From Vicinamibacterales bacterium (GTDB lineage: Bacteria > Acidobacteriota > Vicinamibacteria > Vicinamibacterales > UBA2999), in the NCBI GenBank assembly GCA_035553795.1, contig DATMJU010000733.1, positions 1 through 43,607 of the forward strand: a DNA stretch of 43,607 nucleotides. The letters are read 5' to 3'. The translations under genes were made by a program, and so were the position numbers. Position 1 is the first letter of the stretch, and the number at the start of each line of letters is the position of its first letter. This document shows, piece by piece, positions 31 to 40,652 of this stretch. The notes beneath the pieces are model-generated. The model saw nothing but the letters and a program-made list of their open reading frames with translations. It searched no databases and had not been told where the DNA came from.

Positions 31-69
31 GGTGAGGTGGCCGAGTGGCCGAAGGCGGCGGTTTGCTAA
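31..69 (+). repeat. Left att core: 39-bp copy of the 5' half of tRNA-Ser(GCU), from the acceptor 5' arm through the anticodon loop. It is a truncated tRNA fragment.
   Basis: ggtgaggtggccgagtggccgaaggcggcggtttgctaa is identical at 31-69 and 32575-32613. Flanks diverge immediately on both sides. The left copy has no variable arm, T arm or 3' acceptor strand. Confidence 0.85.
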
Positions 70-7730: not shown

Positions 7731-7749
7731 TAGAGCCAAGGACGCACAA

Positions 7750-14575: not shown

Positions 14576-14581
14576 CAGAAT

Positions 14582-18213: not shown

Positions 18214-18485
18214 CCGCGCGCCCTGCGCTTTCGGATCTGTTTTGACGTGTGGGGCAACTGTTCGGCGGAGATCGAACTCTGGTAGGCAGATTGGAGCGCC
18301 CGAATCAACTGCATCAGCGCACCGGGCTTCACCGGGTACGCTCCCGAGAGAATCTGCGAGACCCGTGCCTGGGTGACTCCCAGGCGCTTAGCAAGTTCCG
18401 CCTGCGTGCGACAGCCCATCGCCGCGGCGAGAACTCGAACGTCCTCCGCGGTGATCCCGTCGTCAGCGCTGGGTTGATTCGGCAA
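18210..18485 (-). CDS. XRE-type helix-turn-helix regulator (91 aa)
   Basis: TQAELAKRLGVTQARVSQILSG is a classic HTH_3 signature. Apparent TTG start at 18485, so the start is uncertain. First gene of the minus-strand operon. Confidence 0.65.
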   Translation of the reverse strand: MPNQPSADDGITAEDVRVLAAAMGCRTQAELAKRLGVTQARVSQILSGAYPVKPGALMQLIRALQSAYQSSISAEQLPHTSKQIRKRRARG

Positions 18486-18498
18486 ATGCGCACAGCAG

Positions 18499-18567
18499 TA
18501 TAAATGATTTATGACAGTATAAATAATTTATGAACAATAAACCGTTAATGTTATAAACCATTTATGA
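18499..18567. promoter_or_regulatory. Divergent promoter/operator region with three copies of a 16-bp site TATAAAT-N-ATTTATGA. Each has a palindromic core ATAAAT-N-ATTTAT.
   Basis: tataaatgatttatga (18499-18514), tataaataatttatga (18518-18533) and the degenerate copy tataaaccatttatga (18552-18567). It is an extremely AT-rich patch in GC-rich DNA. TATAAT-like hexamers occur on both strands between divergent genes. Confidence 0.65.
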
Positions 18568-18571: not shown

Positions 18572-19042
18572 TTGTGGCCGAGTTCAGTTCAGCGCCTGCG
18601 TGATCGCGGTGCCGAGCTGTACCGCGCCGCAGCCAAGAACCACGAGCTAGAGGGCGCGTATTACGCGCAGCGCACCGCCGAACGGGCGAAGCGCCGCGAC
18701 TCGGATCGCGAGTTGCGCGAAGGTGTGGCCGAAGCATTCCTGGCGGACAAGGGCCAACGGGCAATCGCGCATCCACCGCCAACGCCGAAGCGTTGCTGCA
18801 TCATCACCGAGCGCGGACGCTTCTTTTTTGACGTCGCCACCGATCAGGGCCTCGCCAAGGATGTCCCAGCCGAGGCGCATCGCCGCTTCCGCGCGGATCT
18901 GCGGAGCAAGCGGGAACGCGATCAACAGGTGCCGCGCAACTTGCACTCCATGAAGAAAAGAAGCGGTTCATTGCGGACTGGATCGCACGGAATGGCACCG
19001 ACGAACAGCGGACGCGGCAGGCAAATGGCGTCCTTCCGATGA
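18572..19042 (+). CDS. Hypothetical protein. Either coupled to the next ORF or the N-terminal part of one frameshifted gene.
   Basis: Strong GC3 in this frame up to about 18950. Apparent TTG start. The stop overlaps ATG 19039 (ATGA). Confidence 0.45.
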   Translation: MWPSSVQRLRDRGAELYRAAAKNHELEGAYYAQRTAERAKRRDSDRELREGVAEAFLADKGQRAIAHPPPTPKRCCIITERGRFFFDVATDQGLAKDVPAEAHRRFRADLRSKRERDQQVPRNLHSMKKRSGSLRTGSHGMAPTNSGRGRQMASFR

Positions 19043-19434
19043 ACGAGGCGATTGAAGTCATCACCGACCAGATCTTCTCTCCGCTTTGCGAACACATTCA
19101 GTACGCTTGCGACGGCGTGCAGCAGATGCGCGCGCAACTCGCCCGATTAGGCCGCGGCAACGAACCAGTTGCTCCCGGTGACCTGGTGGTCAACAGTGAG
19201 CACGCGAAGACGGCGAGCGCGGAGCAGTGGATGGTGGTGAAGGCGTTCAGCGAGCTCATGCCAGAGGCGACGGTGCACTTGCGGGTGCACCGCATCTCGT
19301 TGAAGGGGGATTCCGCGCCTCCGCCTATCGTTCAGCATGGAATCCTCGTGAACATGAAGCACGGGCCGTTTACGTTGCGGCGCGAATATGCGTTGTCGGT
19401 GGCGCCCGCGACCACGGTCGGTGCGATCGCGTGA
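19039..19434 (+). CDS. Hypothetical protein (131 aa as called). Its frame stays open and protein-like upstream to about 18946.
   Basis: ORF with coding composition. Upstream in the same frame it reads LHEEKKRFIADWIARNGTDEQRTRQANGVLP with no start codon. Confidence 0.5.
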   Translation: MNEAIEVITDQIFSPLCEHIQYACDGVQQMRAQLARLGRGNEPVAPGDLVVNSEHAKTASAEQWMVVKAFSELMPEATVHLRVHRISLKGDSAPPPIVQHGILVNMKHGPFTLRREYALSVAPATTVGAIA

Positions 19435-19525
19435 AACTCGCCACGTGTGGCATGGCCGTGTTTGACACGGCCGTGCGACGGGCGTAGATTTCGAGCATCT
19501 CTCGCTGTGGCCGTCCTGGCCGCCC

Positions 19526-19547
19526 CCTCACGTCGCCCGACGTGAGG
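19526..19547. repeat. Perfect 10-bp inverted repeat cctcacgtcg-cc-cgacgtgagg upstream of the DUF932 gene
   Basis: Read directly. It lies 49 bp upstream of ATG 19596, after the 19434 stop. Confidence 0.6.
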
Positions 19548-19595
19548 CTTCGTTCCACCTCGTCGCCCTCAGGGCACGCAGAAAGGAGCACTCCA

Positions 19596-20702
19596 ATGAA
19601 CGGGACAGGTGTGTCTGCTGTCAATGCGTACACGGCTCACCGGGAATGGGCATCGCGCCCACCCGACGAACGGTACGCCAGTGTTCAAGCCCTCTATGAT
19701 GCGGCACACGCACGTCGCCTCCGCACCGAAGAGCGCACCATTGAGACCGTCGCACTCAGGACCGAGGCGGTGGCATCCGACGCACTCGCGCTACGCGACA
19801 CGTCGGGTCGCCCGGCCGCTCTCACGCACTGGAGCTTCGAGCAGCTCGCCGGCATTGCCGCTGCGCCGCCGAAGTACCTCCGAACGCTCCCCGCGGCGAT
19901 CGCGTCCGACGCGATCAACTACGGGTTGCGGCGTCAACGTCGCGAAGAGCACCAGCTCCTCGTGGACCGCGACGATCCGTGCACCGTCCACGCGGTCACC
20001 TCTCCGAGGTACGCGCGGGTCCATCACGACGAGCTGGCCAACCGGGTGCTCGACCTCATGGCCCAACACCCGGCCTGGTCCCTGCCGCTCGCCTACAAGG
20101 ACGGCGTGTACGGCGCTGAACGGGTTCCGTTCGGCGCCTACCTGGGAGACCGAGACATGTTCCTGTTCCTCGTGGACGGCAACCGCGATCTCGAAGACCC
20201 GACCGATACGTCGCACGCTGCCTTGTTCCGCGGTTTCATTCTCCGGAACAGCGACGTCGGTGCCGCCGCCCTGACCCTGGATGTGTTCCTGTTCCGCGCC
20301 GTCTGCGGCAACCACATCATCTGGGGCTTTCAGCACGTCGTCGGATTCCGGCGCCGACACGTGGGTGCGTCGATTCAAGAGGTCTGGACCACGTCGCTCG
20401 ACAGTGTCCGGACCGCGCTCGACGCCGACCCTGCGCACGATCGCCTCGTTCTCCTGCGGGCCACGTCCCAGGAGCTCGGGCCGACCCGTGACGCGGTTGT
20501 TGATGCGGCCGTTCAGCGACTCGAGCTGTCGCAGAAGCAGGCCGCCGAGGCGTACACGCTGGCAGAAGCGTTCGAGTCGAATCCCCGTTCGGTCTGGGGC
20601 TACGTGCAGGGGCTCACGCGTTTGAGCCAACGCACGCCCTGGCAGGATGGACGTTTCACTCTCGATCGCGCCGCCAGCCGCCTCCTGACCACGGTCCACT
20701 AG
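19596..20702 (+). CDS. DUF932-family protein (mobile-element associated)
   Basis: FILRNSDVGAAALTLDVFLFRAVCGNHIIWG matches the DUF932 core (NSxDGSxA...R.VCxN). ATG 19596 is preceded by gaaaggag. The ORF opens at 19542. Confidence 0.7.
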   Translation: MNGTGVSAVNAYTAHREWASRPPDERYASVQALYDAAHARRLRTEERTIETVALRTEAVASDALALRDTSGRPAALTHWSFEQLAGIAAAPPKYLRTLPAAIASDAINYGLRRQRREEHQLLVDRDDPCTVHAVTSPRYARVHHDELANRVLDLMAQHPAWSLPLAYKDGVYGAERVPFGAYLGDRDMFLFLVDGNRDLEDPTDTSHAALFRGFILRNSDVGAAALTLDVFLFRAVCGNHIIWGFQHVVGFRRRHVGASIQEVWTTSLDSVRTALDADPAHDRLVLLRATSQELGPTRDAVVDAAVQRLELSQKQAAEAYTLAEAFESNPRSVWGYVQGLTRLSQRTPWQDGRFTLDRAASRLLTTVH

Positions 20703-20849
20703 ACCAGGTCATTCGCCGCTCGGGCGCAGCCCCGCGGCTCCTTCCACGCACAACGGGCGTCGGCACACGCCACGTCCTTCACCCGCCCCTCGCGACCTCC
20801 GTCGCGCAGGTGGCCGCCTTCGCTCCCAGAGCCGGGCGCTCTGCCGGAG

Positions 20850-21837
20850 GTGTCTGCCATGCGCGACGGATCCACACGCCGACGAAGCACGAGCCCACAG
20901 TCAGCGGCCGGGTTGATCGCCATCAACCACGTTCACGACTGGCGACGACACGGCCGTCTCGATGACCTTCGCACGTTAGCCGAAGGGGCGAACGATCTCA
21001 CGTGGTCGCGCGGGCTGCTGCACGCGTTGCTCGAAGAACTCCACATCAGCGACGACTTCGACGTGCTCGTCGGGCGTGTGGCCCACCTCCCCGCGAGCCA
21101 ATATCCTCGCCTGCTCGCGACAGCGGTGCTCCTGAGACACAGCTGGTGTCCTCAGGACCTGTCGCGCACAGCCGCGCGACTCGGACTGCCACGTCCTGCC
21201 GGCGGTTCTCCGCCACTCACCTCCGAATCACCCACACCTCGACCGCGGACACCGCCGCCGCGAGATCACGCGTGCGTCGCTCCCAGAGCCGCGTACGCAC
21301 CAGCGCTGAAAGGAGAAGTCATGCTGAATCCGTCTGTCTCGCCTTCGGCTCCAGCACGCGGTCACCGCGTGCGGGAACTCGTCTGCGCCTACCGACCGTT
21401 GCGCGACGGTGACGGCCGCGTCGTCGACGTGCCCACCGTGGTGCTGAAGGACCCACGCACCGCCGCCGCCGTCCTCGCGCCGCTGATCGCGGACCAGCCC
21501 GTTGAGGTCTTCGGCGTCGCGTGCCTCTCCACGAAGAATCGTCTGCTTGCCTGGCACGTGCTCTCGCGCGGAACACGTGCGAGCACGCCTCTCGATGCCG
21601 GATGTCTTCGTGCCCGCGTGTCTCACACCGGGCACGACTGGCCTGATGGTCGTTCACAACCATCCGAGCGGCGATCCCACATTAGGCCCAGACGATGCAC
21701 GACTGACGTTGCGCCTGTGTGCCGCGGCAGACGTGCTCGACATGCCGCTGCTCGACCACCTGATCGTCGGTGACGAGCACCGGCACTACAGCTTCCGCGA
21801 AGCCGGAGTGCTCGGAGCCACTCCGACAACGAGGTGA
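20850..21837 (+). pseudogene. radC: RadC-like JAB/MPN-domain gene interrupted by a frameshift, with an unusual N-terminal extension
   Basis: Frame of 20850 gives ...VEVFGVACLSTKNRLLAWHVLSRGT. Frame +1 gives SMPDVFVPACLTPGTTGLMVVHNHPSGDPTLGPDDARLT...LLDHLIVG (JAMM motif HNHPSG), ending at 21837. The frame switch lies between about 21573 and 21595. A strong internal start exists at gaaaggagaagtcATG (21321). Confidence 0.65.
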
Positions 21838-22001
21838 TGCACATGCCCGCCGCTCCGACATCTCGATTCTGTGGAAGTGCTCGCCCGAGTCAAGGCTTCG
21901 CTCGCTGCGCTCGCCGCTGACGCGGCCTTGACGGGTCTCGGCACTTCTCACGGAGGGCATTTATCGAAGCGGCGGGGGATCTCGAAGAAAGGAGAACGCC
22001 A

Positions 22002-22368
22002 ATGAACGACAGGTCGCTGGCACCGAGCATCAACGTGACCATCGGCCAACACACGCGCGTCTACTTCGCGTTCGTCACGACCAGCGCCGATCAGTCTCGA
22101 TTCGCCAGCGACGGTCACGCTTCACGGCGGGGTCTTCTCCGAGCTGGCCGGCTTTGCGGCCGATCCGATCACGTTCGACGACACCAGGGGCCGCACGCCT
22201 GCGCGTCTGGTGCTCGTCGACGCGATGGAGCTCGCCTGGCAACGAGCGAAGTACCGCGGCAACCAGCACCAGCTGCTCTCCGCGGATCCCGGACTCGTTG
22301 GCCTGAACACGCTGCAGCACTGGCTGTGGCAACGCCTGCAGGCGTCCACTCCACAGGTGGCCGCATGA
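22002..22368 (+). pseudogene. Small hypothetical gene with an apparent +1 frame break
   Basis: gaaaggagaacgccaATG at 22002 opens MNDRSLAPSINVTIGQHTRVYFAFVTTSADQS, which then turns Arg-rich. The +1 frame from about 22100 reads PATVTLHGGVFSELAGFAADPITFDDTRGRTPARLVLVDAMELAWQRAKYRGNQHQLL... and stops at 22366-22368. Confidence 0.45.
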
Positions 22369-22434
22369 ATCCCTCAATCGATTCGTCACCGTCAACCGCT
22401 CGCTCGAGCAGCGAGCTTCACAGGAGGTCACATC

Positions 22435-22740
22435 ATGGTGGTCAAGATCGTTCCGAACGACAAAGGCAACCCGCAAGGCAAACTCGCCGATGCCGAGCTG
22501 CACTTCAGCGACGGCGTGCTCGAAGGCTTGAAGCTGATCGGCTTCGCCGTGTGGGAGCGCCGCAGCGGTGGCGGGCGCAACGTCACCTTCCCCGCACGCC
22601 AGTATTCGGTCAACGGTGAGCGTCGCAGCTTCGCGCTGCTGCGCCCGATCGCTGATGCGTCCGGGCAAGAGCGCGTGCGCGATCTCGTGCTGCAGGCGTA
22701 CGCCGAATATGAGAAGACGGCAACGGAGGCCGCGTCGTAG
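22435..22740 (+). CDS. SpoVG-like small nucleic-acid-binding protein (101 aa); tentative
   Basis: aggagg lies 8 nt upstream of ATG 22435. KLADAELHFSDGVLEGLKLIGFAVWERRSGGGRNVTFPARQY...RSFALLRPI resembles the SpoVG layout. Confidence 0.45.
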   Translation: MVVKIVPNDKGNPQGKLADAELHFSDGVLEGLKLIGFAVWERRSGGGRNVTFPARQYSVNGERRSFALLRPIADASGQERVRDLVLQAYAEYEKTATEAAS

Positions 22741-22807
22741 CGGTGGAAGGCAAGGATCCTGGACGTCCTCCTCCGAGAGGGCGTCCGGGATCGCCGGGTG
22801 AACGATC

Positions 22808-23077
22808 ATGGAGACGACCACTGCTGTCAATTCCGGCGCCGACGATCAATCGCGTGAAAGGGTGAAGCCACGTCTGCTGAACATGCGGCAAGCGGCGGAG
22901 TACCTGGGCTGCAGCTTTTGGACCGCACGTGACTACATCCTTCAGGGTTTGATTCCAATAGTTGACATGCCACCGTTGCGTGCACGCGAGGGAGATCGGC
23001 AGAGAAAGGCGTTGCGGCGCGTCCTCGTAGATCGAGCCGACCTGGACGCGTTCATCGAGTCACGTAAACGCCGCTGA
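22808..23077 (+). CDS. xis: Excisionase/AlpA-type MerR-like HTH DNA-binding protein
   Basis: LLNMRQAAEYLGCSFWTARDYILQGLIP is the typical excisionase-family HTH. Alternative start at ATG 22883. Confidence 0.6.
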   Translation: METTTAVNSGADDQSRERVKPRLLNMRQAAEYLGCSFWTARDYILQGLIPIVDMPPLRAREGDRQRKALRRVLVDRADLDAFIESRKRR

Positions 23078-23275: not shown

Positions 23276-24067
23276 ATGGCGCGACCACTGATACTGGTAA
23301 CGAATGATGACGGCGTGAATGCTCCAGGGCTAAGAGCCGCGGCACTCGTCGCACATGTCTTTGGCGATGTCTTGGTTGCGAGTACGAGGGATCCGCAGAC
23401 TGCTATGGGGCGCTCGTATCCAAAAACTCCAGACACCGGGATCATCGAAGAATACGACATGCGTTTGGACGACGGCACGAAGCTGGAGGCGTACTCAATC
23501 GTCGCCTCACCAGCGCAAGCGGTTTCGTACGCCATCCTGGAGCTGGCGCCGCGAATGCCCGACATCTGCGTGAGCGGCATCAACTTTGGCGAGAACCTCG
23601 GAACGACGCTCACTGGTAGTGGCACCGTTGGAGCCGCGATGGAGGCGGACTCATACAACATTCCAGGGATCGCGATTTCACTCCAGATCGAAGGAGGAGA
23701 CACTCCGGAGGCTGTCAACTGGGCGCCCTCTTCGCACTTTCTTGCGCGATTCTTGGACGAAGTGATTACGCACGGTCTCCCGAAGGGCGTTTCGATTCTG
23801 AACGTTAACATTCCACGCAACGCCTCCGAATCGACAGAGATCAGGGTGACTAGGGACAGTCGGCAACCGTATTTTGTTTTTGCCAAGCCGAAACGCCTTT
23901 CGCGAGACCAAGGCGCAAAACTTCCTGTCGTCGTCGAACTCAATCGCGACACGCTCGAGCCCGACAGCGACATACAGGCGTTGGTGCTTGACCACGTAGT
24001 GTCTGTAACGCCGTTGAGTGCTCACCTCGCCTCTGGCAATCCATGGGTGCCTCGGTTCGCGAAGTGA
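23276..24067 (+). CDS. surE: SurE-like 5'/3'-nucleotidase
   Basis: ILVTNDDGVNAPGL, PDICVSGINFGENLG and GSGTVGAAMEA are the SurE signature blocks. ATG 23276 follows gaggag (23266-23271). The ORF opens at 23156. Confidence 0.8.
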   Translation: MARPLILVTNDDGVNAPGLRAAALVAHVFGDVLVASTRDPQTAMGRSYPKTPDTGIIEEYDMRLDDGTKLEAYSIVASPAQAVSYAILELAPRMPDICVSGINFGENLGTTLTGSGTVGAAMEADSYNIPGIAISLQIEGGDTPEAVNWAPSSHFLARFLDEVITHGLPKGVSILNVNIPRNASESTEIRVTRDSRQPYFVFAKPKRLSRDQGAKLPVVVELNRDTLEPDSDIQALVLDHVVSVTPLSAHLASGNPWVPRFAK

Positions 24068-27000
24068 GTGCTCACGGGGCGATAGCGATGCCGCTCCGGA
24101 TTTTTGTTCTTGGAACGAAGTCAGATCGCGTTGAGCGATCGGAACTCGTCAGGCTCATCGAGAGTACTTCCGCATCTGCCTCAGTTGCATCGGTGCAGTG
24201 GCCCTGCGAGGGACCCTTGCCGTGGTCACATCAAAGCGACTCATGCATCATCATCGTACTCGTTACGCGAGACGGCCTAACGTCTGAGCGCGGATGGTCG
24301 CAGGCGTTGACGTCTAACCAGATTGATACGGAGCGAACTGTAGTTCTTTTTTTGCACGGCCTCGATCCGACAACTCAGCGAGATCTCAAGTTTCGTTACG
24401 CGAAGACGCTCGGTAGCAAAACGATAGCGGACAGTTCGCGCGAGCTGCAAAAGACAGTCGAAGGCTTAATCGCCGACTTGAAACGCTCGGCCACCCGGTG
24501 GGACGGGATTGGGTTGGATACTCGTCGCCTTCTCGGTAGACAAGAAGAATTGAACGCTGCCATCAGCATGGCGAATCCCCCGACAAAATCGATTGCGATT
24601 GTGGGACTTGGAGGACAAGGAAAGACGTCGTTCGCTGCCGCGCTGTCCGACGCGTTATCCTCCGCCTACTCTGATGCACCTTGGGTGTCACTCCGAAATG
24701 GTCCGACACTCGATTGGGTAGCCCAGCGAATTGCTCACCTTCTTGGCGCGGAGATCTCCGTCGCGGATGCGACGGCCGAGACTGCCACCACGAACATCCT
24801 CAGCATGCTGGCGGCACGACGGGTTCTGCTTGTTCTCGACAACGCTGAGACGGTATTCAACAGCAGAGGCGGAGCCGCATCAGCTGAGAATGCGCAGGAT
24901 CTGTCGTCGCACTACGAATATTTCTTTCGCTCGCTCGCACAGGCCCGGCTCGACTCGCTCGTTCTCGTCACGAGCCGTGAACTGCCCAACGCGTATCGAG
25001 TATTTCCCGAGACTCTGCGGGTATTTCGGCTTCCCGGCCTCGATGAGCCAGCAGTTGCACAATTGATGGCAAACAGCGGCGTGACCCTTGAGGCACGCCT
25101 GCTCAGCAAGGTACACGCGCGGTTTCTGGGCAATCCTCTCGCGATCAAGTTGCTTTGTGGCCTGTCTTTGGACCGAGGCGCGGCGGTTGTCACCGAACTG
25201 CTCGCCGCTGACGCGCCCGTAAGCGATGACATCTCAACGCTCATGGACGAGCACGTCTCGCGGCTGTCTCGGGAAGAACGGCTATTTCTCTCGAAATTGG
25301 CGTGGGAGGGCGGCGGTGTTGAGTGGTCTGTTCTTCGCGAACTCGCTTGGCCAGTGGACAGTTCCACGGCACAGCGGCATCTGGATCATCTCTCGCGAGT
25401 TCTGCTGGTGGACTCGAACGACGTGGAGATCGCGATTACGCATCCACTATTGCGCGAGCACTTGGTGGAAGACGTTAAGCGTCAAGTGCGGCTCGGGTTG
25501 TTGCTGGATGACCACGCCGGGCTACCGCAGGTGTTGTCAACGCTGCTGTTGGTTAATCCGCTTGCGGACGACTACGTCCAGACTCTTCAAGTCGCCGCAG
25601 TCGAGAGCCTTGTCGCAGATGTGCGACGACAGCTCGGAACAAAACACAAGTTGCGCGGGCGTATCCTAGCGTTGTTAGAGATCGCGCGGCGTTCGGCGCA
25701 CCCTGGCTACATCGTCGCCAATCTGGTGGAAATCGCGCGGCGTGGCAACGTCGACCTTCACGGCGTCGATTTCACGGGCCTTCCTCTTGATTCAGTCGAT
25801 TTCCGGGACATCGATGTTCGGGACGCCGATTGCTCCTCATCGGAGTTTCGGTCCTGTGTCTTCGGGGACAATTTTGGGCCGGTTACAGCCGTCGCGCGAG
25901 TAGCCGCCGGCCAGGAGCTTCTAGCAGCCGGTACGTTTGAGGGCTTTGTGCGGTTGTGGACGGCTGATGGCGAACTACAGAGTGTTGTCAAATGCGCGGA
26001 TGATTGGCTTTCGGCGATCAGTCCGGTTGCACGTGACGGCGTGTCGTACTTTGCCGCTGTTGACGGCGCAATAGGCAGTGTCCGATGGAGCAATTTGAGC
26101 GTGACGACTCTTCTCAACGTCGACGCTCAAGTCCGAGGCCTGGCCGTCGTCAACGACGTTCTGGTAGCAGCGTGCGCTGACGGGTCGATCAGGGTAGTGG
26201 ATCTCAATACCGGCCGTGCTCGCAAGCTCATGGTCGCGACCTTTCGTCTTAAAGTTGTCCGAGCGATTCCTGGGACGGCGCGCTCCGTCGTTGTGCTAGG
26301 CGGAGATTCGGGCGATCTTTTAGTCTTCGACGTCGAGGGTGGCAAAGAGCTGTCGCGCTTTACGAACGGCACTGCGTGGGTACGTGACGCACTTTTTGAC
26401 GCGGCTGGATCTACGCTGTTTACCGCCGACGATGACGGGCGCGTTCGAGCCTGGGAGCGACAGGCGAACGACGAGTTCCGCCTGAAGACGGAGGCCGGTC
26501 ACTCGCATCGTGTATGGTGCCTCGCGCTCGACCAGCACTCAGCGCGGCTGTTTTCAGCTGGCAATGACGCCGTTATCCGTGTGTGGGACGCGAACTCACT
26601 CAAGCAGCTGGACCTGTACGAAGGACATGGTTCATGGATTCGGTCCATGGCGCTCCTTGATGATGGCCGCGTGCTTGCGAGCGGCAGCGAGGATCAGACG
26701 CTAAGATTCTGGCACACCGAAGACGGCAAGTGCTTTCGGCGGCGTACTGGTTACGCGCGGCGCGTATTCGCGATCGGCTTCGCTTCCGAGGACGTCCTGA
26801 TATGCGGCACTGGCGACCACAAGCTGGTCAAGTTCGACCTCGGCGGCGACACTCCCAGGACAAGCTATTTCGACGGCCACCGAGATCAGGTGTTCAGCCT
26901 CGCGGTTGAACGGCGCTCGAACCGCGTCGCCTCCGCGAGCGATGACGGTGAGGTGCGCATTAGTGATGCCTCGACCGGCGACTCGCTATTTGCTGAGCGC

Positions 27001-27723
27001 CTTCACACGGGATGGATCGGTTCGGTGGCGTTCTCGCCATCTGGCCTGAGACTGGCGTCGGGAGCGGACGATCGTACGATCGTTGTTCTTGACGCCGTCC
27101 ATTTCACACCCATCAACCGCAGACGGACGAACGAGGGCCGCATCTCATCGATAGTATTTGCCGCAGAAGACGTGATTGTCTGTTCTAGCGAAGACGGCAC
27201 GATTCGAGTGCTCGCTGTTCCCGACCTTAGTGAGCGGGGCTGTCACGCGCTGGGCGCCGGACCGCTATACGCAGTAGGGTTGATCGAAAAAGGCACCGCT
27301 GCTATCGCGGCTGGCGTTGGAGGCAAAGTGTGGCGCGTGCCGATGGACAGTGTCTCGCCAGCCGTTCCCGTAGCGGAATTGCCGGTAAACGCGATTTGGA
27401 GCATCGACGTCAGCCCCGACGGTCAGATGGCCGCCTTGGGGGCCGACGACGGAAGTGTAGTGTTGCTTGAGGTGGACAGCAAGCAAGCGCGGACCATTGC
27501 GCAGGCGCACCAACGACAGGTGTGGTGCGTGCGCTGGTCACCGAATGGAAGCACGATAGCGACTGCGAGCGAAGACGGTGAAGTTGCGCTTTGGAATCCG
27601 CAGGGTGCGAGCAAGGCACGCCTAAGGCCGCCACTGTTGTACCACGGACTGCGCATCACGGGCTCTGAGGGGCTATCGCCCGCGGAACGACGACACCTTC
27701 TAGCGATGGGAGCTGTTCCGTGA
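24043..27723 (+). CDS. STAND NTPase: N-terminal alpha/beta (possibly TIR-like) domain, then NB-ARC, a pentapeptide-repeat segment and WD40 repeats (about 1,220 aa)
   Basis: P-loop GLGGQGKTS (about 24604-24630), Walker B LLVLDNAE, LVTSRE, and GNPLAIKLL (GLPL-like). Pentapeptide run VDLHGVDFTGLPLDSVDFRDIDVRDADCSSSEF (25747-25870). WD40 signatures include GNDAVIRVWD, GSEDQTLRFWH, ASDDGEVRISD, GADDRTIVVLD and ASEDGEVALWN. Alternative starts are GTG 24064 (GTGA overlap with the surE stop) and ATG 24088. Confidence 0.8.
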   Translation: MGASVREVSAHGAIAMPLRIFVLGTKSDRVERSELVRLIESTSASASVASVQWPCEGPLPWSHQSDSCIIIVLVTRDGLTSERGWSQALTSNQIDTERTVVLFLHGLDPTTQRDLKFRYAKTLGSKTIADSSRELQKTVEGLIADLKRSATRWDGIGLDTRRLLGRQEELNAAISMANPPTKSIAIVGLGGQGKTSFAAALSDALSSAYSDAPWVSLRNGPTLDWVAQRIAHLLGAEISVADATAETATTNILSMLAARRVLLVLDNAETVFNSRGGAASAENAQDLSSHYEYFFRSLAQARLDSLVLVTSRELPNAYRVFPETLRVFRLPGLDEPAVAQLMANSGVTLEARLLSKVHARFLGNPLAIKLLCGLSLDRGAAVVTELLAADAPVSDDISTLMDEHVSRLSREERLFLSKLAWEGGGVEWSVLRELAWPVDSSTAQRHLDHLSRVLLVDSNDVEIAITHPLLREHLVEDVKRQVRLGLLLDDHAGLPQVLSTLLLVNPLADDYVQTLQVAAVESLVADVRRQLGTKHKLRGRILALLEIARRSAHPGYIVANLVEIARRGNVDLHGVDFTGLPLDSVDFRDIDVRDADCSSSEFRSCVFGDNFGPVTAVARVAAGQELLAAGTFEGFVRLWTADGELQSVVKCADDWLSAISPVARDGVSYFAAVDGAIGSVRWSNLSVTTLLNVDAQVRGLAVVNDVLVAACADGSIRVVDLNTGRARKLMVATFRLKVVRAIPGTARSVVVLGGDSGDLLVFDVEGGKELSRFTNGTAWVRDALFDAAGSTLFTADDDGRVRAWERQANDEFRLKTEAGHSHRVWCLALDQHSARLFSAGNDAVIRVWDANSLKQLDLYEGHGSWIRSMALLDDGRVLASGSEDQTLRFWHTEDGKCFRRRTGYARRVFAIGFASEDVLICGTGDHKLVKFDLGGDTPRTSYFDGHRDQVFSLAVERRSNRVASASDDGEVRISDASTGDSLFAERLHTGWIGSVAFSPSGLRLASGADDRTIVVLDAVHFTPINRRRTNEGRISSIVFAAEDVIVCSSEDGTIRVLAVPDLSERGCHALGAGPLYAVGLIEKGTAAIAAGVGGKVWRVPMDSVSPAVPVAELPVNAIWSIDVSPDGQMAALGADDGSVVLLEVDSKQARTIAQAHQRQVWCVRWSPNGSTIATASEDGEVALWNPQGASKARLRPPLLYHGLRITGSEGLSPAERRHLLAMGAVP

Positions 27724-28385
27724 AGTTCTCTTCCTCGTTTCGACGTTGGATTCTGGCCCTTGGCGCGTCGCTGGGCGCACCATACCTCTGGCGTCGGTGG
27801 GCGAGGGTCATTTTGGGACTTGTGTGGCTATTGATTGTTACCGCTATCGCATTTGGCGTGACGGTGATTTCGGAGCGTATTAGAGATCCGAAGGTTCTCT
27901 GGGCGACGATCTTCGCCTCCTCTTTAGGGAGCATTGCGGCTGGACTCTTTGGGGCTGTGGCGACAGTGCTTAGTCTTGAGGTGCTTAGAGCAAGGCGCGT
28001 TGAGCGAGAGGAGAGAGCCACGTTCCTGAGTAGATTGCGGTCGCGCGATCGAGGGACGGTCTCGGCGGCGATCGAAGAACTGCGCAGTCGGCGATTACTC
28101 GACAGTGGATACCTTGACGGGGCCGACCTTCGTGGCGTGGTTTTCGCGGAGACGGACCTGCGAGGGATGCGCGCGGTGGCTGCCCGTTTTGACGGTGCGG
28201 ATCTGACCAACGCAGTTCTCTATGGCGCGGATATCCGCTTCGCGTCCCTGAGGGATGTGACGCTATCGGGAGCAACCAATCTACGTCTATGCAAATGGCA
28301 CGGAGCAGATCTGACAGGCGTTGACGGTTCTCTGCTTCGGGAATGCGGTCTCCCTCATGTCGCTCAGATCCAAGTTTCCAGATAG
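27720..28385 (+). CDS. Membrane-anchored pentapeptide-repeat protein (221 aa)
   Basis: GTGA overlap with the STAND stop. N-terminal hydrophobic helices (ILGLVWLLIVTAIAFGVTVI and ATIFASSLGSIAAGLFGAVATVL), then GADLRGVVFAETDLRGMRAVAARFDGADLTNAVLYGADIRFASLRDV. Confidence 0.7.
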   Translation: MKFSSSFRRWILALGASLGAPYLWRRWARVILGLVWLLIVTAIAFGVTVISERIRDPKVLWATIFASSLGSIAAGLFGAVATVLSLEVLRARRVEREERATFLSRLRSRDRGTVSAAIEELRSRRLLDSGYLDGADLRGVVFAETDLRGMRAVAARFDGADLTNAVLYGADIRFASLRDVTLSGATNLRLCKWHGADLTGVDGSLLRECGLPHVAQIQVSR

Positions 28386-29731
28386 CGTGCGTACGGCGCC
28401 GCGTATCGCGAAGAGTCGCCGGGCGCACACGCTTGATCCTCCACAGCAATCAACGACGTGAGCTTGTCGAGTAAGCCTTTGTCGATGGCTGCGGCTGCCA
28501 AGAGGGCACTTCCTACCCCACGATCGGCTGACGGCCTGTAGACTTGCGTTAGGCCGGTTACGTCTGAAACGATTTGCCTCCATAAATTGCTTCTCGCCCC
28601 GCCCCCCGCTGCCAGTGCCGCTGAGAATGTCGTCGATTCGGTCTCGATAGCCCAGCGCAACAAATACGCGAACCCTTCGAGAAGGGCTCGTGCAAGATCG
28701 CCTCTTGTGTGGTGAGGTTCAAGGTATCGGACTGAGCCGCGTGGGCGCGAACTGACGGTGGTCTGGCGCAGGTCGTCTGAGTGCAAGAAGACAATGCCGC
28801 GCGCGCCGGGCTCGGAGCTCGCGGCCAACGCGTCGAACAACGCCAACTGTTCGGTCCTATTCTCGCCATCAGTGATCAGGCCCGCCAGATGACTCAACTG
28901 TTCGCCAGCGCGTGGCACCGAGAGGATCCACTGGAAGGGATTCAACGGGCTCAATCCGAATAGAACCTCGTCGCGCGTTCGGGTGATCCTGGCTGCCGAG
29001 TTGAACGTGCCGTAATACACTAGCAACGCGTCACGTTCATTTGCGAGCCCGGCGCCGAGCGCCGTGGCCACGGTATCTGAAGATCCAACAGTGACCGGTA
29101 CGCCCCTCAGCTGCGGTACTCCGTAGCTCGCTCGAACCCTCCCTGCGAACGTGGCTGGTGGCATGATCTCTGGGAGACTGGATCTGTCGATGCCAAAGTC
29201 CCCCAGGATGGCGCCATTCCAGCCGTGGCCGGGCTCGATAAGGGATCCGCATTCACCGGCCGTTACGGTGTCGACTACGAAGGCACCGGTTAAGTCGCGA
29301 ACGAGCCAGTTGTGGGTGCTGTACCATCTGAAGGGCGTGGTCGACCCCTTGGACAACAACAGGACCTTAGAGAGCACCTCATTGGCCCACTTCGGCGAGT
29401 TGAGTTGCTTATCTAACGACAGTTCAAGTTCGTACGCATCGTCATCACAGAACAATAGGGTTCCGATCGGTTCATCAGATTCAGTCCGCAGCGCGACATT
29501 CGGGACCATCGACGTGATGCTCAACGCTTCGACGCGAACGCCGCTCTCGATCTGGTCAAAAAGTGTCGTTAGTATCCGCTCAAGCACAGACGACCAGCCG
29601 CTAGGAGAAGCCTGCGCGGAACGGCTCCCATAGGCCGAGGCGATCTGGTGCCTTTCACCACTGTTGACGTCTAGTGCTGTCGCCTTAACCACCGACGTGC
29701 CGAGATCCACGCCCACACAAATGGTCGTCAT
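28364..29731 (-). CDS. FGGY-family carbohydrate kinase
   Basis: ICVGVDLGTSVVKA (N-terminal ATPase motif), GSSDTVATALGAGL and GGGARSNLWRQIVSDVTGL. ATG 29731 forms an ATGA overlap with the upstream stop. The ORF opens at 29773. Confidence 0.75.
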   Translation of the reverse strand: MTTICVGVDLGTSVVKATALDVNSGERHQIASAYGSRSAQASPSGWSSVLERILTTLFDQIESGVRVEALSITSMVPNVALRTESDEPIGTLLFCDDDAYELELSLDKQLNSPKWANEVLSKVLLLSKGSTTPFRWYSTHNWLVRDLTGAFVVDTVTAGECGSLIEPGHGWNGAILGDFGIDRSSLPEIMPPATFAGRVRASYGVPQLRGVPVTVGSSDTVATALGAGLANERDALLVYYGTFNSAARITRTRDEVLFGLSPLNPFQWILSVPRAGEQLSHLAGLITDGENRTEQLALFDALAASSEPGARGIVFLHSDDLRQTTVSSRPRGSVRYLEPHHTRGDLARALLEGFAYLLRWAIETESTTFSAALAAGGGARSNLWRQIVSDVTGLTQVYRPSADRGVGSALLAAAAIDKGLLDKLTSLIAVEDQACAPGDSSRYAAPYARYLETWI

Positions 29732-31059
29732 TGTCGAGCCTCTGAACGATGTGTCATTGACGACCGCAGCCAAGACTTGAGCTGTGTGGCAGCATGTGGG
29801 TCTATTTCGATCGAATCAGGAATCCGCGAGTCGACCGCGTGCAGATCGAAGGCATCGCGCAAAGACGATAACTCGTGATGTACGGCGAGGTAGTGCGCAA
29901 GACCCATTCGTCCAGTCACAAGGATGTCCCGCAAGTTCACGGGCAGCGTCGATCCACCCCGGAGCCGGTACGCAGAGACGCCAGCAAGGCCCGTATGAAG
30001 GATCTCTACCCGCCAGGCCACTTCGGGTGGGACTGGAATTCCGATGCGTTGAGCCAATCGGGCACTTTCGGAAAGATATGGCGCTCCGGAGCCATAGGAA
30101 GTTCCTCCGGCAACGTCGAGTCCTACGTAGTCCGCAAGAATGTCCAACGCCACGCGCGGAATGATTCGTATGGACTCGTCCGTGAGAGGGTCTCGCTGAC
30201 GGACAAGCCCGCAGTTCGTGCAGTCAGCATCGACGCAGTCGGTGTTCCTGCGTATACGTTCGCGGCCTTGACACGAGGGGCAAACGGTCCAGTAGTATTC
30301 GAACCCCTTGGGATCAGGTCCAAGTTGTCGACTGAGGTCCACGTATACAGGCCGGAGATGGCCATGTAGTGCGGACAAAGGCACGAACAGCACATTGGGA
30401 GCAAAGCCGTGAACGTAGGCAACGCGCATCCATGCGTAGGCGGTGACCTCGGTGGTACCTAACGTGGGTTGCACGGGCGGACCTAGGTCTGCTGCGATAT
30501 CGCTTAGGGGCCGTGGTGGGCGCGAACCGTCCTGCTGAAGCAGCCGGGACAGCGATTCGATCAATTCTGCAAGCTCTGTGAAGTATCGCTGGGAGGGGAC
30601 GGGCTGCGCGTTTATCTGCTTATGGGGCTCGGCCACGGGATAGCGGATGCGTCTGAGAAGCGCCTTGTCGGAGGGATCAAATACTTGTGAAATGCGAAAC
30701 CGGCGATTAGTCGCAACATCGTGATCGACCAGAAATACGATACTGACGACGTGCTCGCCCAAGGCGAGAAGGGTCTGCTGTAGGTGATGTAAATACCGTA
30801 GCTGCAGAAGGAGGTTGTCGTAGGGCAGAAAGTTCGGTTGGTGCGCCAGGCGTACGATGGTCGCGCCGCCCCGAATGGCTTCAAGCTGCATGTCGAAGCG
30901 CGCCGGAGCCAGGCCGGTGCGGGAGTGAAACGCCGACACGGCTTCGGCGAGCGCAATTCGGTTCACTCTTGAATATCGGCGCTCAGATCCCGAGCGAATT
31001 GCATTGGCGACGGTCGCGATGCATTTGTGCGGGGTCCGAGTCATGGTGACGGTCGACAT
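29728..31059 (-). CDS. Hypothetical 443-aa protein with an HQPNFLPY motif and a zinc ribbon; WbqC/BshC-like at most
   Basis: LAHQPNFLPYDNLLLQL resembles the N-terminal motif of WbqC-like/BshC-like proteins. CPSCQGRERIRRNTDCVDADCTNCG is a CxxC...CxxC ribbon. Coupled to the kinase gene. Confidence 0.55.
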   Translation of the reverse strand: MSTVTMTRTPHKCIATVANAIRSGSERRYSRVNRIALAEAVSAFHSRTGLAPARFDMQLEAIRGGATIVRLAHQPNFLPYDNLLLQLRYLHHLQQTLLALGEHVVSIVFLVDHDVATNRRFRISQVFDPSDKALLRRIRYPVAEPHKQINAQPVPSQRYFTELAELIESLSRLLQQDGSRPPRPLSDIAADLGPPVQPTLGTTEVTAYAWMRVAYVHGFAPNVLFVPLSALHGHLRPVYVDLSRQLGPDPKGFEYYWTVCPSCQGRERIRRNTDCVDADCTNCGLVRQRDPLTDESIRIIPRVALDILADYVGLDVAGGTSYGSGAPYLSESARLAQRIGIPVPPEVAWRVEILHTGLAGVSAYRLRGGSTLPVNLRDILVTGRMGLAHYLAVHHELSSLRDAFDLHAVDSRIPDSIEIDPHAATQLKSWLRSSMTHRSEARQ

Positions 31060-31355
31060 TGGCGCGGTCCAACGTGCCGCAGCTCATCCGTGGTGTCAAG
31101 GCAATTCCGGTCCACCCCTTTCGGCACCGCTCTCGGGCCACTTTGAAGCCCTTGGTAGCGCCCGATATGCGCGAGGTGAAGTGAGCAGCAGGGGCGACTT
31201 CGGTAGCTGCTTCATTCAGCGAACGTCGGTCGGGAGCCACCGGCCGCTTTAGGGGTAAGATGGCCATTACTCACCACTGGCCTGCCGGCGCGGAGCACGC
31301 GCCGAGTTGGCCCTGCCAAGCGGAATCCAGCCACAACCGAAAGGAGGAACTCTGT

Positions 31356-32579
31356 ATGGGAACCGTGTATTCACGGAAGCGGTCGCCGTACCTCTGGATC
31401 AAGTACTACCAGCACGGTCGGCCTGTTCGAGAGAGCACAGGCACGAAGAACGAAGTCGTCGCACGCCGTATGCTGCGTGCGCGCGAGGGTGACGTCGAGC
31501 GCGGTATCCCGATCGATCCCAAGGTCGGCCTCGTCACCTTCCGCAACGCCGCCGAGGACATGCTCAACGACTACAAGGCGAACCGCAAGCGGACGTACGT
31601 CGATGCCAAGCGGCGGATCAACAAGCACCTCGCGCCGTTCTTCGGGAACAGACGGCTGTCGTCGATCACGGCGAGCGACATCCGTGCGTACATCGCGAAG
31701 CGCATGGCCGACACGTACCTGGCCCGGCCAGCGCGGCGGGTCAGACATCGCAATGGCACCTCGCAGGATCTGCCGGAGCTCCGAAGGCCTGTGTCAGCTG
31801 GTGAGATCAATCGCGAGCTGACCGTCCTCAAGCGGATGTTCAGCCTGGCGATCGAGGCGGGGAAACTGCACCACAAGCCGCACTTCGCCATGCTGCGAGA
31901 GGACAACGTCCGCGTCGGCTTCTTTGAGCGTGAGCAGTACGAAGCCGTGCTCTCCCATCTCCCCGCGGGCATGCGGCCGGTGGTGACGTTCGCGTACGTC
32001 ACGGGATGGCGAATCAACAGCGAGGTGTTGCCGCTCCGGTGGAGGCAGGTCGATCTCAACGTTGGGGAGGTCCGGCTCGACCCGGGCACGACTAAGAACC
32101 GAGAGGGGCGGGTGTTCTACCTGACTCCCGAACTGCATCAGCTCCTGAAAGAGCAGCGCGCCGCGGCGGACGACATCCAGCGCCAGAAGAAGATGATCGT
32201 CCAGCACGTCTTCTTCCATCGCGACACGACCAAGGCAGGGGCCTTCGGGCACTGGGCGGGGAAGGGGATCTCGGAGCACGGCTTCTACCACGCCTGGCGA
32301 ACGGCGCGGATGGCCGCCGGCTGCCCCGGCAGCATCCCGCACGACTTCAGGCGCACTGCCATCCGGAACATGGTGCGGGCCGGGATTCCGGAGCGGGTGG
32401 CCATGAAATTGAGCGGCCACAAGACCCGCAGCGTTTTTGATCGCTATAATGTCGTGAGCGACGGAGATCTGCGGGACGCTGCTCGTCGACTTGGGCACAC
32501 TGGCGGGCACACTGGCCCATCCTTGGCCTTCGGCGGCGGCGAGAAAACGCAAAATTCTTACGAAATCCACGCACGGTGA
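31356..32579 (+). CDS. int: Tyrosine recombinase / phage-type integrase
   Basis: aaaggagg lies upstream of ATG 31356 (ORF opens at 31260). The N-terminal arm-binding-type region is GTVYSRKRSPYLWIKYYQHGRPVRESTG. Catalytic blocks are TGWRINSEVLPLRW (R), HDFRRTAIRN (HxxR) and GHKTRSVFDRYN (H...Y). The stop TGA at 32577-32579 lies inside the tRNA. Confidence 0.9.
   Translation: MGTVYSRKRSPYLWIKYYQHGRPVRESTGTKNEVVARRMLRAREGDVERGIPIDPKVGLVTFRNAAEDMLNDYKANRKRTYVDAKRRINKHLAPFFGNRRLSSITASDIRAYIAKRMADTYLARPARRVRHRNGTSQDLPELRRPVSAGEINRELTVLKRMFSLAIEAGKLHHKPHFAMLREDNVRVGFFEREQYEAVLSHLPAGMRPVVTFAYVTGWRINSEVLPLRWRQVDLNVGEVRLDPGTTKNREGRVFYLTPELHQLLKEQRAAADDIQRQKKMIVQHVFFHRDTTKAGAFGHWAGKGISEHGFYHAWRTARMAAGCPGSIPHDFRRTAIRNMVRAGIPERVAMKLSGHKTRSVFDRYNVVSDGDLRDAARRLGHTGGHTGPSLAFGGGEKTQNSYEIHAR
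32491..32515 (+). repeat. Right copy of the 25-bp double GGGCACACTGG element (candidate arm-type site), inside the integrase 3' end
   Basis: Identical to 177-201. It encodes GHTGGHTG in the integrase C-terminal tail. Confidence 0.6.
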
Positions 32580-32669
32580 GGTGGCCGAGTGGCCGAAGGC
32601 GGCGGTTTGCTAAACCGTTGTAGGGCCTTTAAAGTCCTACCGAGGGTTCGAATCCCTCCCTCACCGCCA
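32575..32669 (+). tRNA. tRNA-Ser (anticodon GCU), class II with a long variable arm and encoded CCA
   Basis: Acceptor GGTGAGG/CCTCACC, D arm GCCGAGTGGCCGAAGGC, anticodon loop TTGCTAA, a long variable arm, T arm GAGGG-TTCGAAT-CCCTC, discriminator G and CCA. Confidence 0.9.
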
Positions 32670-38168: not shown

Positions 38169-38831
38169 TCACCGACGTCCGTTGTCGTGCTGCACGGCGA
38201 TCAGTTCCCGCCGCTCGGGATCGAACGTCACGAGCGTGACTTCGCGGGGGACGAACCGCAGGCGGCGCTGCAGGGCAAGGCGCGGCGGAACGCCCTCCCC
38301 TCCGGCGGCGGCAGGCACACGAGGAAGCACGTCGCCGAGCGTGGGGTCGGAAGCGGCCGCCGGGTGCGTGCCTGAGGGGGGCGCGTTCTCGGATCCCGGA
38401 GCGCCCGGCGCGACATCCGGATCGAGGCGCTCGAACCGTACGTCCACCGCCCTGTCGCCTGGCGTAACCACCACTTCACGGAACACGTACACCCGGCGGT
38501 CGCGCCGGAGCCCGCCGCCGTGCACGATCTGGTCGGCGACGACCTCGCCGTCCAGCCTGACCTGCAGCCGGTACTCCGCGGTCGTGCCCGCGCAGACCAC
38601 CTCCTGCCGCATGTGACGCGGCAGCGCCGCCAGTTCCTCTTCGGTCTGGCGGCGGCACCGTTCGATGCGCTCGGGCCGGGCACTCCACGCCAGGCGCAGC
38701 ATCGCGTCCGGGGAGGGATTGGCGGTCATCGGGGCGCTGGATGCACACGCCAGGCCGAGTGCCACCGCCGCGGCCGCGCCAGCTCCCGCCGCGCGCGTCA
38801 GCAACCTCATTCCTGCCGTACGCGTTCGCAC
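38169..38831 (-). CDS. Putative lipoprotein, function unknown
   Basis: Signal peptide with a lipobox-like VALGLAC. 220 aa. Confidence 0.5.
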   Translation of the reverse strand: MRTRTAGMRLLTRAAGAGAAAAVALGLACASSAPMTANPSPDAMLRLAWSARPERIERCRRQTEEELAALPRHMRQEVVCAGTTAEYRLQVRLDGEVVADQIVHGGGLRRDRRVYVFREVVVTPGDRAVDVRFERLDPDVAPGAPGSENAPPSGTHPAAASDPTLGDVLPRVPAAAGGEGVPPRLALQRRLRFVPREVTLVTFDPERRELIAVQHDNGRR

Positions 38832-40354: not shown

Positions 40355-40652
40355 CCGGGTGGGCGGCTGAACGGTTCGAGGCGGCGCCTCCAGCGGCTGG
40401 CCGCGGCCTGCCGGCGGTGCATCGCACTCGGCCGCGTGGCGCCGGGGGGCTGAACGGGGCAGCGTCTCCTCCTGAGGAACACCCTTCTGGCAGCGCCGGC
40501 AAGGGCGGGAGGCACCCTCCGTGCCCCTGCAGCGGATCTTCCCCGCTCGGGCGGCGCCGCCATATGACGCGCGTCATACGAGGCAGGCCGGCTGGTGCCT
40601 TATGCTCCGGGCCGTTCACGCCACAACGCCACATCTGCTGCGCAGGAGTGCC

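Follow-up and report, generated by a model that had tools for sequence, protein, structure and literature searches.

We analysed a 43,607-nucleotide stretch of DNA from a Vicinamibacterales bacterium (Acidobacteriota; assembly GCA_035553795.1, contig DATMJU010000733.1), referred to here as the window, and focused on a plus-strand operon in which a gene for a SurE-like phosphatase is followed by genes for a STAND NTPase and a membrane pentapeptide-repeat protein (Table 1). An earlier note, made by reading the DNA without database searches, had presented these as a coupled three-gene module. All three genes lie where that note had placed them, but it had overlooked two genes on the opposite strand that encode an FGGY-family carbohydrate kinase and a 443-amino-acid (aa) protein that we call BshC-like. 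These two genes are convergent with the SurE-STAND-pentapeptide genes, and the 3' ends of the FGGY and pentapeptide genes overlap. The unit comprises five genes, not three.

The SurE open reading frame (ORF) runs from an ATG at 23276 to a TGA at 24065-24067, with a GAGGAG Shine-Dalgarno-like sequence upstream. The earlier note had proposed that the STAND protein starts at the GTGA junction that ends this gene (24064-24067). A GTG does exist at 24064, in frame with the STAND ORF, but homologues of the STAND protein begin at the equivalent of an ATG at 24088 (MPLRIFVLGT...), and the spacer between SurE and STAND genes is 13-22 nt in five other loci (L001, L002, L003, L049 and L051; Table 2). ATG 24088 is therefore most likely the STAND start, giving a protein of 1211 aa, and coupling through the GTGA is probably not real. 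At the other end of the STAND gene, the stop codon overlaps the start of the pentapeptide gene in a second GTGA (27720-27723), with GGGAG upstream; this 4-nt overlap is seen again in L001, L002 and L005. An ATGA overlap, with AGAGG upstream, joins the stop of the BshC-like gene to the start of the FGGY gene. Both overlaps were verified in the sequence.

Table 1. Positions of the module genes, the STAND domains and other features of the window.
Feature	Position	Strand	Description
Left att repeat	31..69	+	repeats, without mismatch over 39 bp, the 5' half of tRNA-Ser(GCT) as far as the anticodon loop
DruD1	6567-7730		Druantia
DruE1	7750-13323		Druantia
DruA1	14582-16738	-	Druantia
SurE-like gene	23276..24067	+	263 aa; first gene of the plus-strand operon
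STAND NTPase gene	24088..27723	+	1211 aa from the most likely start, ATG 24088; frame open from 24043
STAND N-terminal domain	24088..24522	+	aa 1-145; predicted flavodoxin/TIR-like fold
NB-ARC and helical/winged-helix arm	24523..25767	+	aa 146-560; NB-ARC match, invariant motifs
Pentapeptide-repeat-like linker	25768..25962	+	aa 561-625
WD40 beta-propeller sensor region	25963..27720	+	aa 626-1211
Membrane pentapeptide-repeat gene	27720..28385	+	221 aa; GTG start
FGGY-family carbohydrate kinase gene	28364..29731	-	455 aa from ATG 29731; ORF open to 29773
BshC-like zinc-ribbon gene (unk443)	29728..31059	-	443 aa
Tyrosine integrase gene	31260..32579	+	Phage_integrase 6.4e-19; right end of the element
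tRNA-Ser(GCT)	32575..32669	+	first 39 bp (32575-32613) are the right att repeat

SurE, STAND and FGGY genes recur together across phyla

We surveyed the genomic context of 12 SurE homologues with 44-78% identity (Table 2); all counts of loci refer to this sample. A STAND gene lies beside SurE in 10 of the 12, an FGGY gene is also present in nine, and a BshC-like gene in seven. With the window included, the totals for 13 loci are 11 with STAND, 10 with FGGY, 8 with the BshC-like gene and 6 with the membrane protein. Homology of all five module proteins across loci was confirmed by tblastn and by hidden Markov model (HMM) searches. Co-occurrence of SurE and STAND genes across genomes, on which the proposal of the earlier note depends, is thus strong. 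The survey gives a different picture of the three-gene composition, since the invariant partners of SurE are STAND and FGGY, and the membrane pentapeptide gene occurs in only 6 of the 11 module loci.

Table 2. Gene arrangement around the sampled SurE homologues.
Locus	SurE identity	Arrangement
L001	78%	all five genes, in the order of the window
L002	76-78%	all but the 443-aa gene
L003	63%	contig end falls inside the STAND gene
L004 (Micromonospora)	56%	SurE, STAND, pentapeptide, 443-aa homologue, FGGY; one strand
L005/6	56%	arrangement as in L004
L047	50%	STAND, 443-aa homologue, SurE, FGGY
L048	49%	SurE-FGGY, then Trypco1, a Trypsin_2-TIR_2-ATPase_2 protein and a TPR protein
L007/8	47%	SurE-FGGY divergent from a PNP_UDP_1-NACHT-WD40 protein; 443-aa homologue nearby
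L049	46%	FGGY, 443-aa homologue, SurE, STAND, pentapeptide; flanked by two serine recombinases
L051 (Rhizomicrobium)	45-46%	SurE, STAND, FGGY (minus strand); distant 443-aa homologue upstream (2e-6)
L050 (Chloroflexota)	45%	genes for sugar utilisation, without the module
L052	44%	no module; adjoins a Nuc_deoxyrib_tr-like protein in an apparent biosynthetic cluster

SurE is directly upstream of STAND in the window, in L001-L005, in L049 and in L051; the gene order is otherwise shuffled. Hosts of the module include Acidobacteriota (Vicinamibacterales), Actinomycetota (Micromonospora), Alphaproteobacteria (Rhizomicrobium) and metagenomic lineages. That the neighbourhood is kept in at least four phyla despite the shuffled order is strong evidence of functional coupling, and on these gene arrangements the adjacency of SurE and STAND is more than chance. 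When the top 120 SurE hits are placed in a neighbour-joining tree, sequences linked to the module occur on most branches, so that the SurE of the module represents a large subfamily. The earlier note had considered that a conserved housekeeping context of surE in relatives would speak against its proposal; the relatives sit in the module instead.

The partner of SurE and FGGY is not always the same type of protein. In L008, the partner STAND protein carries a PNP_UDP_1 domain (3.9e-13), and in L048 (10001-16892) the SurE-FGGY pair is combined with a quite different NTPase-based conflict system. The homologue in L052 has no module beside it; its neighbours (1-11979) are a 568-aa protein that weakly matches Nuc_deoxyrib_tr, together with radical SAM enzymes, a DegT aminotransferase, a glycosyltransferase, a SpoU methylase and an APH protein. 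This region looks like a biosynthetic cluster of nucleoside/aminoglycoside type, not a module. A RuBisCO-large-like gene lies a few kilobases downstream of the module FGGY gene in L002 (16236-16666). Scans of viral contigs with FGGY, SurE and a SurE alignment found no relatives, and tblastn of a plasmid collection with SurE and the BshC-like protein found no matches. Scanning metagenomes with the BshC-like alignment recovered a single locus, already in the survey.

Enzymes and membrane protein of the module

The SurE-like protein matches Pfam SurE (PF01975) at 1.5e-40, and the match covers positions 1-186 of the 189-position profile. The earlier note had described a complete SurE-type gene, and the NDDG, SGINxGxN and SGTVGAA blocks on which it had relied are indeed intact; residues N10, D11, D12, G13, G101, N103, N107, S115, G116 and T117 are invariant in an 11-sequence alignment. 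In the PDB, the protein matches 1l5x best (E 6e-20) and other SurE structures more weakly, and it is 100% identical to one named SurE in a Vicinamibacterales metagenome-assembled genome. SurE is a nucleotide phosphatase (5'/3'-nucleotidase). Compared with housekeeping SurE (E. coli surE/umpG, T. maritima, P. aerophilum), the window protein has the same full-length fold and metal-/phosphate-binding motifs, but it lies on a mobile element with STAND and FGGY neighbours, belongs to a subfamily that has a QQTAMGRSYPK loop, and scores below the cut-offs of all 13 NCBIfam SurE equivalog models (131.7 bits against 135.1 for TIGR00087 and 155 against 290 for NF001491), so that the scores do not support orthology to housekeeping SurE. 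We rejected a 410-aa SurE (P0065) as a candidate fusion protein because its extension is low-complexity sequence.

The kinase is a divergent member of its family. It matches FGGY_N (1.8e-11) and FGGY_C (6.1e-14), and its translation carries VDLGTS, GSSDT and GGGARS motifs; the DxGT and GGGA motifs of the family are conserved. The structures that it matches best in the PDB are those of xylulokinases (3hz6, 4.8e-20), along with the AI-2 kinase LsrK (1.7e-10). It could be placed in no FGGY subfamily of known substrate among the NCBIfam models, the best being xylulokinase TIGR01312 with 99.5 bits against a cut-off of 380.

The 443-aa family was harder to classify. No member scanned matched Pfam, PADLOC or PHROG, the window protein matched no NCBIfam model, and PDB profile searches with the family found nothing. 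Eight members share the motifs HQPNFxPY, VDxDxxxxRF, CxxC...CxxC, LDDxxD and GGxSY, and one of the eight matches NCBIfam TIGR03998 thiol_BshC (7.1e-4). We aligned the family with B. subtilis BshC using hhalign, having confirmed that the BshC sequence used is that of PDB 4WBD. The match is marginal (E 9.6e-4, probability 22%), and the motifs are collinear over ~380 columns: LAxxxxxxHxxxG, QQ/QP...PLY/PY, the (E)DHD/VDxD strand, GPGE.xY/GGTSY and G.xxPPxxxR occur in the same order in both. The 443-aa protein differs in having no C-terminal coiled-coil domain and in an inserted CxxC...CxxC zinc ribbon. It is probably a remote BshC relative that lost the former and acquired the latter. A single-sequence AlphaFold2 (AF2) model (predicted local distance difference test score, pLDDT, 34) was not used. 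BshC is the cysteine-adding enzyme of bacillithiol synthesis, which joins cysteine to a sugar amine, and its own chemistry is still unsettled. The bacillithiol pathway genes bshA and bshB were not found near the module.

The membrane pentapeptide protein, which the earlier note had predicted to start at the second GTGA junction, is real: it has two clear hydrophobic helices (approximately residues 26-54 and 59-90) and tandem A(D/N)LXX repeats, and it matches Pfam Pentapeptide (PF00805, 5.1e-13) and Pentapeptide_3 (5.3e-6). HMM searches identified homologues in L001, L002, L004, L005 and L049. L005 also encodes, downstream of the module, a second pentapeptide-like protein of 293 aa (17682-18563; HMM E 1.8e-18) that adjoins an AAA_16-TPR protein.

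The STAND protein has an NB-ARC core, WD40 propellers and a divergent N-terminus

The STAND protein comprises an N-terminal domain, an NB-ARC domain, a helical arm, a pentapeptide linker and WD40 propellers, in this order. NB-ARC motifs and many WD40 repeats had been recognised in the earlier note, and both are borne out by profile searches. Residues 141-660 of the ORF, counted from 24043, match NB-ARC (3.5e-7), NACHT (4.3e-5) and nSTAND1 (1.6e-4), and residues 1-660 match NB-ARC at 6.3e-7. In an alignment of five homologues that are 25-56% identical, invariant residues include the Walker A motif GLGGQGKT (G173-K179), the Walker B motif LLVLDN (D251, N252), T295/R297 (TSR, with the sensor-1 Arg), G348/N349 (GNPLA, the GxP motif) and H452 (HPLL); from its position, H452 would be the MHD-like His of the winged-helix domain. 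Among solved structures, the NOD region comes closest to the plant CNLs Sr35/CNL9 (E 0.009). Scanning genome contigs with a NOD alignment identified 37 loci, mostly cyanobacterial STANDs of ~28% identity; these have no SurE, FGGY, pentapeptide or BshC-like genes and serve only as an outgroup.

The C-terminal region (aa 640-1226 of the ORF) matches Pfam WD40 at 4.3e-51, together with many propeller models, including those of TEP1 propellers. Its length suggests ~14 blades, i.e. two propellers. To file the protein with the "Avs-type" STANDs that the earlier note had named is not justified: the sensor consists of WD40 rather than TPR repeats, the N-terminus has no recognisable effector family, and no Avs model in PADLOC was matched, the only match being HEAT-ARM_XIII, through the WD40 region. 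Between the NOD and the propellers, the linker is the most conserved segment of the protein (identities to L001, L002 and L004 of 82%, 69% and 48%). It has weak matches to Pentapeptide_3 and Pentapeptide_4 (E 0.06-0.14), and an HMM of the membrane pentapeptide proteins also matches the STAND ORF of L004. Such conservation of the linker suggests a role as a surface for docking, perhaps with the membrane pentapeptide protein.

The N-terminal domain is the fastest-evolving part of the protein, with 41% identity to L001 as against 61% for the NOD and 65% for the WD40 region. It has no Pfam match in any of 10 homologues, and a PDB profile search gave nothing significant. An exhaustive HMMER search identified two real relatives among 1.84 billion representative proteins; a third match, to a repetitive 3272-aa protein, was judged spurious. 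A homologue search gave two matches for the N-terminal domain with the NOD and none for the domain alone, the index being saturated or too insensitive. We modelled the domain with AF2 from a two-sequence alignment, and obtained an alternating beta/alpha, flavodoxin-like fold (pLDDT 71). The top Foldseek matches in the PDB were the cryptic TIR 5for (E 1e-3), TIR-STING, the TcpB TIR and receiver domains, with E values of 1e-3 to 2e-2 and TM-scores of 0.4-0.5. We call the domain TIR-like in fold only. By eye, there is a possible resemblance to DUF4062/NIR (T..D...ER, SE..W..A), with no Pfam DUF4062 match. Thus, comparison of the STAND N-terminus with effector folds, which the earlier note had singled out, recovered no recognised effector family.

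The module is cargo of a 32.5-kb integrative element

The att repeats of the window form a 39-bp direct repeat, of which none is expected by chance, and they bound a 32.5-kb integrative element that carries the module as cargo. The integrase gene ends inside the tRNA gene, so that integration was apparently into the 5' half/anticodon loop and not at the usual 3' end. The element has ~60% GC, as compared with ~70% for the host DNA. It also carries a type I Druantia system (region 1436-18213), with matches to DruA1 (1.8e-177), DruD1 (4.8e-120) and DruE1 (E=0); the DruB and DruC models were unmatched, and ORFs 1436-2527 and 3724-6648 match neither. The att repeats, integrase, GC difference and Druantia genes support the suggestion of the earlier note that this SurE belongs to a mobile defence island, as an accessory gene. 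The layout of the Druantia system is unusual: DruA lies on the opposite strand, where it is coupled to the gene for a GHKL ATPase (16735-18213; MzaB-like, 8.9e-15). A DruK/Cas4-like PD-(D/E)XK nuclease (13310-14575) comes after DruE. Further genes of the element encode DUF932, RadC and HTH_17 proteins; the region that contains them (19001-23000) has a GC content of 0.64-0.67, against 0.57-0.62 in the rest of the island, a step that suggests a mosaic origin of the element. Outside the element, window positions 39001-40000 have a strong AT skew (+0.287) within a host region of ~71% GC, with long overlapping minus-strand ORFs at 38807-40661.

Defence and mobility genes also accompany the module elsewhere. 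Druantia genes are within 10 kb of the SurE-STAND module in three of the 11 module loci, which belong to three phyla (the window at 6567-16738, L004 at 2096-7021 and L051 at 1-7043). The idea that the module and Druantia form one inherited block was rejected: DruE identities of 42% and 28% do not track SurE identities of 45% and 55%, indicating independent, repeated co-localisations. A GmrSD/HEC-05 protein flanks the module in L007, recombinases flank it in L049, and L051 has flanking genes for a coupling protein (faint TrwB match) and a relaxase.

Discussion

We lean, tentatively, towards the view that the module is a five-gene, horizontally mobile conflict system, most likely anti-phage, in which a STAND protein would control enzymes that act on nucleotide or ribose-phosphate metabolites. 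The WD40 propellers would bind an invader-derived ligand, and nucleotide exchange would drive oligomerisation of the STAND protein, as in Apaf-1 and Avs. Oligomerisation would cluster the N-terminal TIR-like domains and, by way of the tightly co-translated SurE, turn on a metabolic arm. The targets of SurE as a phosphatase, of FGGY as an ATP-consuming kinase and of the BshC-like enzyme would be nucleotides or the ribose-phosphate products of their cleavage. As a result, either the nucleotide/energy pool would be drained or the cleavage products would become non-recyclable, and the infected cell would no longer support replication. The membrane pentapeptide protein might dock the complex to the membrane by repeat-repeat contacts, or might be an added membrane effector.

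The linkage kept in the face of reshuffling, the breadth of hosts, the mobile and defence-rich setting and the intact catalytic motifs of SurE and FGGY speak for this view. We favour a nucleotide/ribose-phosphate theme because SurE is a nucleotide phosphatase and because the partner domains of SurE-FGGY pairs are a TIR-like fold, PNP_UDP_1 and TIR. Both TIR and PNP_UDP_1 are folds that cleave nucleotide N-glycosidic bonds. The persistence of SurE and FGGY alongside effector-bearing STANDs suggests two possible roles: they may be a pair that burns ATP and dephosphorylates nucleotides, or they may process cleavage products. Several observations weigh against the proposed conflict system. The same persistence where the STAND protein has an effector of its own (PNP, or TIR with trypsin) means that SurE and FGGY may be accessory, not primary effectors. 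FGGY kinases normally use free sugars or polyols, not nucleotides. An hhalign comparison of the N-terminal domain with the real TIR_2 domain of L048 was negative and, by eye, the domain has no Glu at the canonical TIR catalytic position. The WD40 region is 62-65% identical to L001 and L002 and the NOD region 56-61%; hence the putative sensor varies no more than the NOD does, whereas many immune sensors evolve fast. PADLOC v2 contains no model for four of the five proteins (SurE, FGGY, BshC-like and pentapeptide), and the neighbours of the module in L047 are not recognisably defensive.

We considered three other explanations. One, that a housekeeping surE happens to lie beside an unrelated STAND gene, would account for the canonical motifs of the protein and for its annotation as SurE in the source record, but it is effectively refuted by the context survey: 10 of the 12 sampled homologues, with identities as low as 46%, have SurE and STAND adjacent, this holds for several phyla and for rearranged gene orders, and identities of 46-78% exclude the origin of the sampled loci from one recent clone. 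The location of this surE inside an att-bounded element of deviant GC content, and its scores below every NCBIfam equivalog cut-off, are also at odds with a housekeeping gene. A more serious, if rather unlikely, alternative is that the enzymes are not toxic: the kinase, BshC-like ligase and phosphatase would form a short pathway to make, modify or destroy a small sugar-phosphate or ribosyl conjugate, which would act on the STAND protein, or on the membrane pentapeptide effector, as an activating ligand or as a brake. A small-molecule pathway classically consists of kinase, ligase and phosphatase; BshC, the closest relative that could be detected for the 443-aa protein, adds cysteine to a sugar amine; and the AI-2 kinase is among the nearest solved relatives of the FGGY protein. 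A common signalling role would fit an enzyme set that stays constant while STAND N-termini vary (unknown fold, PNP, short, TIR with trypsin), and it has analogues in LsrK with AI-2, the ring nucleases of type III CRISPR systems and the amino-acid-ADPR signals of Thoeris. However, we detected CARF, SAVED, Macro or SLOG receptor domains in no module protein, WD40 propellers usually bind proteins, and the set is incomplete in some loci, the BshC-like gene being absent from L002 and L048 and the membrane protein from five loci.

It is also conceivable, though quite unlikely in our judgement, that the module is not immune at all, and that the STAND protein is a signal-transduction ATPase that scaffolds or regulates a niche pathway, e.g. 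for turnover of a sugar-derived compound, stationary-phase survival or the programmed cell death of filamentous or aggregating bacteria, with the island location reflecting the ordinary mobility of accessory genes. STANDs such as MalT regulate metabolism, and SurE is classically a stationary-phase survival factor. L047 and L005 have no recognised defence neighbours, and in L050 and L052 a related SurE has a plain metabolic or biosynthetic setting. Against this, a domain scan of the STAND protein found no DNA-binding or other output domain, and the module lies repeatedly beside Druantia, GmrSD and trypsin/TIR conflict genes, inside integrative elements. Moreover, its architecture is that of bacterial Apaf-1-like STANDs, which have been grouped with defence STANDs (PMC13581612).

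Within the conflict-system proposal, we offer as a long shot the more specific idea that SurE, FGGY and the BshC-like protein together form a portable metabolic arm for immunity of the NLR type, which handles the ribosyl-phosphate products of N-glycosidase effectors (TIR-like, PNP and TIR). If so, the trio might render depletion of NAD+/ATP irreversible and leave phage NAD+-reconstitution pathways with no substrate. In a second version, it might build an immune signal of a new kind, an amino-acid-sugar-phosphate, by which the membrane pentapeptide effector would be gated. In either case, a kinase/phosphatase/ligase pathway would be a new functional layer in STAND immunity.

The closest comparison is with Apaf-1-like STANDs (PMC13581612; Kaur et al. 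2020, PMC7159879), with which the window protein shares an NB-ARC core, a WD40 C-terminus and a location in defence islands. Bacterial Apaf-1 orthologues have been classed among the defence STANDs (PMC13581612, Nature 2026). Whereas the published proteins have a fused N-terminal effector, e.g. a caspase-like protease, the module protein has a rare flavodoxin/TIR-like domain with no family match, and it is tied to three separate enzymes and a membrane protein. The cyanobacterial STANDs that are its nearest NOD relatives in genomes differ in having none of the four partner genes. Avs proteins resemble the module STAND in combining an N-terminal domain, a STAND NTPase and a C-terminal repeat sensor, in their occurrence in defence islands and in presumed oligomerisation; however, each Avs system is encoded by a single gene and combines a TPR-like sensor with a recognised effector (nuclease, SIR2, TIR, NIR and others), whereas the module STAND has WD40 sensors and needs, or at least always travels with, separate enzymes.

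Attack on the nucleotide pool has precedents. PNP ATP nucleosidase effectors of CBASS Cap17 and Detocs act in this way (bioRxiv 10.1101/2023.01.24.525353), CARF-HAD phosphatase effectors deplete nucleotides (PMC12715507), and NIR and TIR NADases serve as effectors, NIR NADases being found on Avs and TEP1 (bioRxiv 10.64898/2026.09.04.749371). The PNP_UDP_1-STAND fusion of L008, the SurE-FGGY pair with a TIR protein in L048, and SurE itself, a phosphatase as HAD is, recall these systems. By contrast, the SurE fold is unrelated and is not described as that of an immune effector, and SurE is free-standing with no sensor domain and is always paired with a kinase.

The earlier note knew of no described system of this composition, and neither PADLOC, through its missing models, nor the literature gave us reason to differ. 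Full-text searches pairing SurE or FGGY with defence terms returned nothing relevant, and none of the top-ranked papers for BshC with defence terms mentions BshC. SurE and FGGY are absent from the main text of defence surveys including PMC13581612 and PMC7159879, where BshC was not searched for. The module looks like an undescribed, enzyme-equipped variant of NLR-type/STAND-based conflict systems, not a new category.

STAND/NLR-type sensors link bacterial and eukaryotic innate immunity, and nearly every bacterial one described so far is a single protein to which an effector is fused. An Apaf-1-like sensor linked to three small-molecule enzymes would represent a new wiring of an NLR-like receptor to metabolism, and would give SurE, FGGY kinases and a BshC-like enzyme their first immune context.

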